Shown here one piece after another: positions 51,546-51,815 of a stretch of DNA of 64,000 nucleotides (position 1 is its first letter; the number at the start of each line of letters is the position of its first letter). The notes under the pieces were generated by a model. It was not told where the DNA came from. It searched no databases and saw only the letters and a list, made by a program, of their open reading frames with translations. The position numbers and the translations under genes were made by a program. The stretch spans positions 409 to 64,408 of the forward strand of contig CAYUXK010000004.1 of the NCBI GenBank assembly GCA_964448835.1, given 5' to 3'. This DNA comes from an uncultured Clostridium sp. Its GTDB lineage: Bacteria > Bacillota > Clostridia > Oscillospirales > Acutalibacteraceae.

Positions 51546-51577
51546 AAAGAAAACAACCGTGAAAACACGGTTGCTTT
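51546..51577 (-). terminator. Intrinsic terminator of the small peptide gene
   Basis: Minus strand CAACCGTG-TTTT-CACGGTTG-TTTTCTTT. Confidence 0.8.
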
Positions 51578-51612
51578 GAACAATTTGGTTAATTTAGCTT
51601 GCACAAAATAAA

Positions 51613-51753
51613 TTAGCCGAGCTTGCTGACGAGTTCGATAATTTTAGGAAGGTATTCTTTAATTGCGGCGATGGCCTTTTCAAGTAAGCCGGAATCCTTG
51701 ATAAATGTAATAGCCTGCTTCAGAACGTCAATGACGGGTTGTAAATCTTCCAT
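51613..51753 (-). CDS. 46-aa amphipathic helical peptide (absent from ORF track)
   Basis: MEDLQPVIDVLKQAITFIKDSGLLEKAIAAIKEYLPKIIELVSKLG; AAAAGGAGA RBS, own promoter and terminator. Confidence 0.8.
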   Translation of the reverse strand: MEDLQPVIDVLKQAITFIKDSGLLEKAIAAIKEYLPKIIELVSKLG

Positions 51754-51786
51754 AAACACATCTCCTTTTCATCTTATTTCTACAAC

Positions 51787-51815
51787 AATATAGCACAAGC
51801 GACACCACAAGTCAA
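51787..51815 (-). promoter_or_regulatory. sigma-A promoter of the small peptide gene
   Basis: Minus strand TTGACT (51810-51815), 17 bp, TG-extended TATATT (51787-51792). Confidence 0.75.

Follow-up and report, generated by a model that had tools for sequence, protein, structure and literature searches.

The peptide gene and its neighbours

We analysed a 64,000-nt stretch of a contig from an uncultured Clostridium sp., referred to here as the window, and focused on a short gene on its minus strand. The coding sequence (51613..51753, TAA stop included) specifies a peptide of 46 residues, with codons at 51753..51616 and the TAA at 51615..51613. Its translation is exactly MEDLQPVIDVLKQAITFIKDSGLLEKAIAAIKEYLPKIIELVSKLG, the sequence given in the preliminary description of this locus. 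An alternative in-frame GTG lies two codons 5' of the ATG, at 51759, and the ORF listing extends to that position; in a four-species DNA alignment, the ATG at 51753 is the start kept in relatives. The ribosome binding site AAGGAG (51762..51767, minus strand) places its GGAG (51765..51762) 8 nt 5' of this ATG. Further upstream, a promoter scan detected a -35 hexamer, TTGACT (51810..51815, minus strand), and an extended -10 element, TG-c-TATATT (51787..51795, minus strand; TG at 51795..51794, TATATT at 51792..51787). The two hexamers are separated by a 17-nt spacer, and the promoter scored 10/12 plus the extended -10 in a consensus scan. Read directly, it is a promoter of the housekeeping sigma-A type and not of a sporulation sigma type. 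On the 3' side, a terminator scan placed an intrinsic terminator at 51550..51577 (minus strand), a 12-pair hairpin followed by a T-run, and the RNA fold of this region (-17.4 kcal/mol) differs from that of shuffled sequences at z = -3.8. All of the elements originally proposed for this unit (promoter, strong ribosome site, ORF and terminator) were thereby recovered on the minus strand.

The composition of the peptide also agrees with what had been proposed. It contains 6 Lys and 7 Asp/Glu, for a net charge of -1, and a direct reading of the sequence revealed hydrophobic runs too short for either a leader or a transmembrane segment. By direct count, 52% of its residues are hydrophobic. An identical 46-aa protein is present in a public protein collection, indicating that at least one gene caller had called this ORF. 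Rfam returned no credible RNA family for the locus. The best match there, at 51471..51578 on the plus strand, was to the Enterococcus sRNA EF3314_EF3315 (25 bits; gathering score, 100). The matched region takes in both of the convergent terminators that lie between secA and the peptide gene, and it almost certainly reflects mere terminator structure.

The gene is flanked on one side by secA (48725..51481, plus strand), which is convergent with it. On the other side, and on the same strand as the peptide gene, lies the last gene of a sortase operon (51852..54290, minus strand); the 812-aa product of this gene is a membrane protein with a SpoIID domain at its C terminus (Pfam SpoIID, E 4.6e-5). 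This gene is preceded in the operon by two sortase genes (611 and 324 aa; 54311..57145, minus strand; Pfam Sortase matches), cinA, thiI and an iscS-like gene. A scan of the 36 nt between the stop codon of the SpoIID fusion and the -35 element of the peptide gene (51816..51851) detected no terminator. Read-through from the sortase/SpoIID operon is therefore possible in addition to transcription from the peptide gene's own promoter, and the peptide terminator may also end a long iscS-thiI-cinA-sortase-SpoIID transcript. Elsewhere in the window, three ORFs (305, 309 and 448 aa) at 44009..45862 (minus strand) and 46795..48141 (plus strand) had no Pfam match at E <= 1e-4.

Conservation, selection and the wider peptide family

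Searches with the single sequence found little. A word-indexed search returned only the peptide itself, 60 related genomes gave chance-level matches only, and no match was obtained in 36 genomes of the same genus. A search of the peptide's own genome for paralogues, which had been suggested as a check, was likewise negative. The relatives emerged from an exhaustive phmmer search of 1.84 billion representatives, which identified P0002 (49 aa, E 1.4e-6) and P0003 (47 aa, E 6.5e-6), and P0061 (51 aa, 65% identity in that search) was recovered subsequently with a profile. Together, these represent peptides of 47-51 aa and 41-63% identity in three other species. The preliminary description had allowed for a frame that is not conserved; what was found are relatives of conserved length. 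A further candidate was a conserved 172-aa Cys-rich protein (L004 1486..2004, minus strand; L012 1111..1629, plus strand), whose end, ...EEIAEIIELKSKLEG.F, resembles the peptide tail KIIELVSKLG. The C-terminal similarity (39% identity over 39 residues, E about 0.24-0.66) was judged coincidental, and we did not retain this protein as a relative.

In the four-species DNA alignment, four signals are invariant: the -35 (ATTGAC), the extended -10 (TGTG.TATA(T/A)T), the start codon ATG and the ribosome site AAGGAGATGT. The intergenic DNA around these signals is not. The hexamers of the promoter are invariant in the four species, in keeping with the original proposal of an independently expressed gene. 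A hairpin and T-run also lie 3' of the P0002 (L046) and P0003 (L047) genes; none was seen in the L051 and L052 sequence shown in the alignment. In the coding frame, pS values computed from this alignment of the four species carrying the window's type of peptide (A4) were 0.58-0.84, which is saturated, compared to pN values of 0.20-0.36. A pN far below pS, together with the conserved expression signals, indicates a protein-coding gene under purifying selection. The peptide ORF is thus a genuine protein-coding gene with its own conserved promoter.

We also considered whether the ORF might have arisen by chance or might mark a non-coding RNA. The frame is short, and neither the single-sequence word-indexed search nor the 36 same-genus genomes supplied a homologue, as a chance ORF would predict. 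Against this stand the length-conserved relatives, the excess of synonymous over nonsynonymous change and the invariant ribosome site and start codon, and a non-coding RNA is disfavoured by the absence of a meaningful Rfam match. The conservation pattern effectively refutes the chance-ORF reading, and we regard either alternative as having a negligible probability.

The relatives of the window's type are accompanied by a recurrent genomic neighbour. In all five contigs that carry such a gene (the window, L046, L047, L051 and L052, representing four species), it lies 73-110 nt 3' of a homologue of the 812-aa protein and on the same strand, and in L051 the order sortase, 805-aa protein, peptide is the same as in the window. 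The other flank differs by species, being occupied by the convergent secA in the window and elsewhere by a convergent BspA-type LRR/Big_2 protein, a small secreted protein or a PMT_2 glycosyltransferase. No synteny was detected downstream of secA in the closest relatives. This linkage to the SpoIID operon is suggestive at the level of gene order. However, two genomes of the same genus (G003 and G020) encode orthologous SpoIID fusions (about 59-60% identity) with no peptide gene behind them, so the linkage may represent inherited synteny rather than functional coupling.

A profile built from these sequences alone, which we call the C-type, gives weak matches to small ORFs of a second genus in the same bacterial family (A-type genes, with per-genome E values of 1.7e-4 and 4e-3). 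Those ORFs are tandem pairs of 45-49-aa peptides, and an alignment that includes them recovers about 68 clusters, nearly all of 45-51 aa, with a few longer calls that are mis-started. The clusters are unannotated or named 'hypothetical protein', and they derive from Clostridia/Acutalibacteraceae MAGs. Three types can be distinguished: the A-type (49 aa, MDQIMEM..IDWEEVIATVKDIVAKIEESGIIDKAIAAVKDLIAMIAG), the B-type (45-48 aa, MDQILGFVEQLLAYLNEGEAADIVGMVKDSGVVE...) and the C-type of the window, which has an extra EY.PK..E tail absent from the A- and B-types. They share the core (I/V)(K/E/Q)(D/E)SG(I/L/V)(I/L/V)(D/E)K.(I/V).A(I/V)K, in which Ser21 is invariant and Gly22 occurs in at least 90% of 61 family sequences. 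Net charges across the family range from -1 to -8, and most relatives lie between -3 and -6. The relation of the C-type to the A- and B-types rests on profile E values between 1e-4 and 1e-11 across some 35 residues; the A3 profile, in which the window peptide is itself one row, scores the window gene at 4.1e-10.

Profile searches thus identify the tandem A/B peptides (P0004-P0068) as true relatives of the window peptide, with the same length and the shared core, and genes of both kinds have their own consensus-like promoter, strong ribosome site and terminator. In contig L055, for example, the A and B genes each lie behind TTGACA-17-TGnTATAAT (12/12) and a GGAGGTG ribosome site; the scan placed a terminator on the first gene, and a hairpin and T-run follow the second. 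The differences are also clear. The window gene is single, whereas the A and B genes are paired; its product lacks the MDQI... N-terminal helix extension, carries the additional tail and is less acidic (-1); and it follows a sortase/SpoIID operon, whereas the A/B pairs precede a 239-aa membrane protein. In L055 (7602..8781), the pair is followed by this 239-aa polytopic protein and by a 116-aa acidic, aromatic secreted protein, whose gene has a separate near-consensus promoter (TTGACT-17-TATAAT with TG). Pfam matches neither protein, the window's genome contains no homologue of the 239-aa protein, and hhalign detected no relation between the peptide family and the 116-aa protein. The two kinds of locus share one further feature: in the window (46046..48635) and in L055 (1..1941), both peptide loci lie within a few kb of Exo_endo_phos and tadA-like deaminase genes. 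This arrangement hints that, rearrangements notwithstanding, C-type and A/B loci sit in roughly corresponding parts of the chromosome.

The family is patchy, lineage-restricted and variable in copy number. Within the window's genus, 71 of 132 species genomes contain a related small ORF at E <= 0.01, at various loci such as after thioredoxin or between rluA-like and aldolase genes. Sampling across the Acutalibacteraceae, only 4 of 185 genera scored at E <= 1e-4. Pattern scans for the C-type in GTDB species genomes and JGI metagenomes yielded no confirmed relative, and the C-type is rare. A tblastn search of plasmids with an A-type peptide gave no match, and we found no description of the family or its sequences in the literature. 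Given its profile match at 45-51 aa, its Ser-Gly hinge and its monocistronic unit with a near-consensus sigma-A promoter, the window peptide is, on profile evidence, a divergent member (C-type) of a so far undescribed family of peptides limited to a few Acutalibacteraceae-like lineages of gut Clostridia. Neither this family nor the link to the sortase/SpoIID operon figured in the preliminary description.

The family profile also led to a different class of protein. Within the window's genus, three or more species encode proteins of ~140-180 aa whose C-terminal 44-52 residues it matches; those of L106 (1017..1553, minus strand), L107 (738..1202, plus strand) and L108 (981..1487, minus strand) measure 154-178 aa. 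Each has a classical Sec signal peptide at its N terminus, and between this and the tail lie C2H2-like zinc-finger motifs, two or three in number (Pfam zf-C2H2_4, E 9e-8). Comparison of the whole peptide module with these tails by hhalign gave E values of 7.8e-7 and 9e-6, with probabilities of 92% and 83%. Exported C2H2-like fingers are odd in themselves. Because the module is fused behind Sec signal peptides, it would work outside the cytoplasm in these proteins. By extension, the free peptides, too, would more likely act at the envelope or extracellularly; they themselves have no visible export signal or linked exporter.

Predicted structure and possible function

An AlphaFold2 model based on the 61-sequence alignment (mean pLDDT 77) contains a helix at residues 5-21, a break at Ser21-Gly22, with the hinge of the model at residues 22-23, and a second helix at residues 24-45. 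The two predicted helices have hydrophobic moments of 0.53 and 0.57, compared to shuffle means of 0.20-0.23; the fractions of shuffles reaching the observed values were 0.007 and 0.0002. The model gives a predicted fold of two amphipathic helices hinged at the invariant Ser-Gly, and the amphipathic helical character originally read from the spacing of hydrophobic residues is borne out by moments far above those of shuffles. Scans of the peptide against Pfam, NCBIfam and PHROGs returned nothing significant. Foldseek against the PDB and a PDB sequence profile search gave only chance-level helical matches, the best being a designed helical repeat (E 0.0075) and the UvrB C-terminal hairpin (E 9.9). 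A match to a known intracellular protein family would have spoken against the membrane-active proposal; the Pfam, NCBIfam, PDB and Foldseek comparisons identified no family for this peptide.

A membrane- or envelope-active role is plausible on these sequence grounds. We tentatively favour, at a probability of roughly 40%, a reading in which the peptide, putatively abundant, acts at the membrane or envelope in the manner of the beta-type phenol-soluble modulins (beta-PSMs), possibly in connection with the sortase/SpoIID genes. The gene would be read from its own strong sigma-A promoter, and probably also by read-through from the operon, so that the peptide could be made in large amounts. It would then leave the cell by a route that uses no signal peptide, and its broad hydrophobic faces would work at the membrane or cell envelope through self-association or surface binding, as those of beta-PSMs do. 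The role of the C-type subfamily would probably be tied to the neighbouring cell-wall genes. The Sec-fused modules, the constant sortase/SpoIID neighbours, the sub-threshold matches of relatives to alpha-type PSMs and the patchy distribution all point to an envelope site of action. Against it, the peptide has no signal peptide, neither an ABC exporter nor an immunity-like gene lies beside it in the window, and the peptide itself matches no PSM model. Moreover, small cytoplasmic regulators that assemble into four-helix bundles just as typically have acidic helical hairpins of this size. A broader proposal is more speculative still, and we consider it doubtful: that gut Clostridia export abundant leaderless acidic hairpin peptides non-classically, as putative modulin-like surfactants, surface organisers or membrane-active agents, that the same module may also be delivered through Sec as the tail of zinc-finger-like proteins, and that it accompanies a sortase/SpoIID wall-remodelling operon here.

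Several other roles have to be weighed against an envelope-active peptide. The hairpin could instead dimerise to a four-helix bundle or dock on a cytoplasmic partner, serving as an intracellular regulator or adaptor whose amphipathicity provides a protein-protein interface. The lack of a signal peptide and of a linked exporter, the compact two-helix hairpin of the model and the housekeeping-type promoter are consistent with such a role, as are the acidic charge, which is unlike that of most membrane-attacking peptides, and the high conservation of the A-type subfamily over many clusters. It is less easily reconciled with the occurrence of the same module behind Sec signal peptides in the same genus, or with the hydrophobicity of the peptide and of its very greasy B-type relatives. 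In addition, no conserved cytoplasmic partner gene was seen across the different loci, and presence and copy number vary within one genus. We therefore regard an intracellular role as possible, if somewhat unlikely. A second alternative is that the peptide is an accessory subunit that binds the 812-aa CinA-like/SpoIID membrane protein or the sortases and modulates cell-wall remodelling. The position 73-110 nt behind the SpoIID-fusion gene in five contigs, each time with a different downstream flank, would fit this idea, as would the missing intervening terminator and the restriction of the EY.PK..E tail to the C-type. However, A-, B- and other types lie at unrelated loci (after glyA/oxidoreductase genes, after thioredoxin, or between rluA-like and aldolase genes), the SpoIID-fusion orthologues of G003 and G020 are not followed by a peptide gene, and the strong promoter of the window gene sets peptide dosage independently of the operon. 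The association also derives from a sample of only four species, possibly of one clade. A dedicated accessory subunit is unlikely on this balance.

The preliminary description had also compared the peptide to leaderless bacteriocins, and a leaderless class II bacteriocin that kills competitor bacteria would explain the missing leader, the length of about 45 residues and the amphipathic helix. The tandem pairs of the relatives are moreover followed by the 239-aa polytopic membrane protein, a candidate immunity protein. As a function, this comparison fared poorly. The peptide carries a net charge of -1 and most of its relatives one of -3 to -6, no bacteriocin family of Pfam or NCBIfam was matched, and the 239-aa protein has no counterpart in the window's genome. 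The neighbours of the window gene are secA, the SpoIID fusion, sortases and cinA, with no adjacent immunity or ABC transporter gene. Because the family is acidic throughout (-1 to -8) and the gene lacks an adjacent immunity or exporter gene, we consider a bacteriocin very improbable.

Whichever role applies, the family is unannotated and lineage-restricted in gut Clostridia, and the gene should be annotated. The C-type adds a third type to the family, one that is genetically tied to cell-wall genes, and the presence of the module on Sec-exported proteins gives a testable hint about its site of action. If the peptides are surface-active or exported, they would constitute a new class of abundant small effectors of the gut microbiome; if they are cytoplasmic, they would represent a new family of small regulators.

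Comparison with leaderless bacteriocins and phenol-soluble modulins

The leaderless class II bacteriocins of the enterocin L50, aureocin A53 and lacticin Q types resemble the window peptide in lacking a leader, in their length of 30-53 residues, in their helical character and, in some cases, in their multi-peptide loci. Leaderless bacteriocins are, in general, strongly cationic and Trp-rich, and they are encoded with immunity and ABC-export genes. The window peptide belongs to an acidic family and its gene has no such partners in the window; neither the cationic charge nor the adjacent immunity/ABC genes that characterise these bacteriocins was found.

In staphylococci, small leaderless amphipathic peptides that are strongly expressed are major effectors of spreading, biofilm structure and cell lysis. 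We know of almost nothing comparable in anaerobic gut commensals. Alpha-type PSMs were the most frequent match family for the 61 members, with matches for 10 of 61 in NCBIfam (best E 3e-5) and 15 of 61 in Pfam (best E 1.3e-3). All of these matches are sub-threshold (15-22 bits against a cut-off of 30) and cover 9-15 residues of the C-terminal helix, and neither the window peptide nor its relatives reached the curated cut-offs of the alpha-type models (NF033425, PF17063). For the window peptide itself, no alpha-PSM match was obtained, and its sole PSM match was to the epsilon type (E 1.1). With respect to the alpha-PSMs and delta-lysin (NF033425, NF033428, PF17063, PF05372), the likeness lies in the C-terminal helix of some relatives (...SGIIDKIVDFVKGLIG), which aligns, at 20-22 bits, with positions 1-15 of the 21 in the PSM-alpha model. 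In contrast, peptides of the window's family have twice the length and an acidic charge. What is similar is a single generic amphipathic helix, and this similarity may be convergent.

The beta-PSMs offer a closer parallel in design. They share with the window peptide a length of 44-46 residues, the lack of a signal peptide, a near-neutral to acidic charge and a multi-helix amphipathic structure, and both are encoded by small stand-alone genes with strong expression signals; the peptide's relatives are, in addition, paired in tandem like psm-beta genes. The window peptide has the size and fold of the group (about 44 aa, no signal peptide, amphipathic helix). At the level of sequence, the likeness ends: with the beta-PSM models (Pfam PF05480 and NCBIfam), the peptide had no match at E <= 10 and the 61 relatives none at E <= 1. 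The resemblance is therefore one of design, and the peptide does not belong to the beta-PSMs. The beta-PSM comparison drawn in the preliminary description consequently holds for length, charge, helical hairpin, stand-alone promoted gene and the tandem pairs of relatives and fails for sequence, and its caution that homology to PSMs or leaderless bacteriocins was not established remains appropriate, given that the peptide matches no Pfam or NCBIfam model, those for PSMs included. The biological settings also differ. The beta-PSMs are staphylococcal, are controlled by Agr quorum sensing and are exported by the Pmt ABC transporter, whereas the window peptide comes from a gut Clostridium, is preceded by a housekeeping sigma-A promoter and, among the window neighbours, has no adjacent ABC exporter. 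If the proposal of a modulin-like role is true, the family would represent an independent, non-staphylococcal invention of a PSM-like system.
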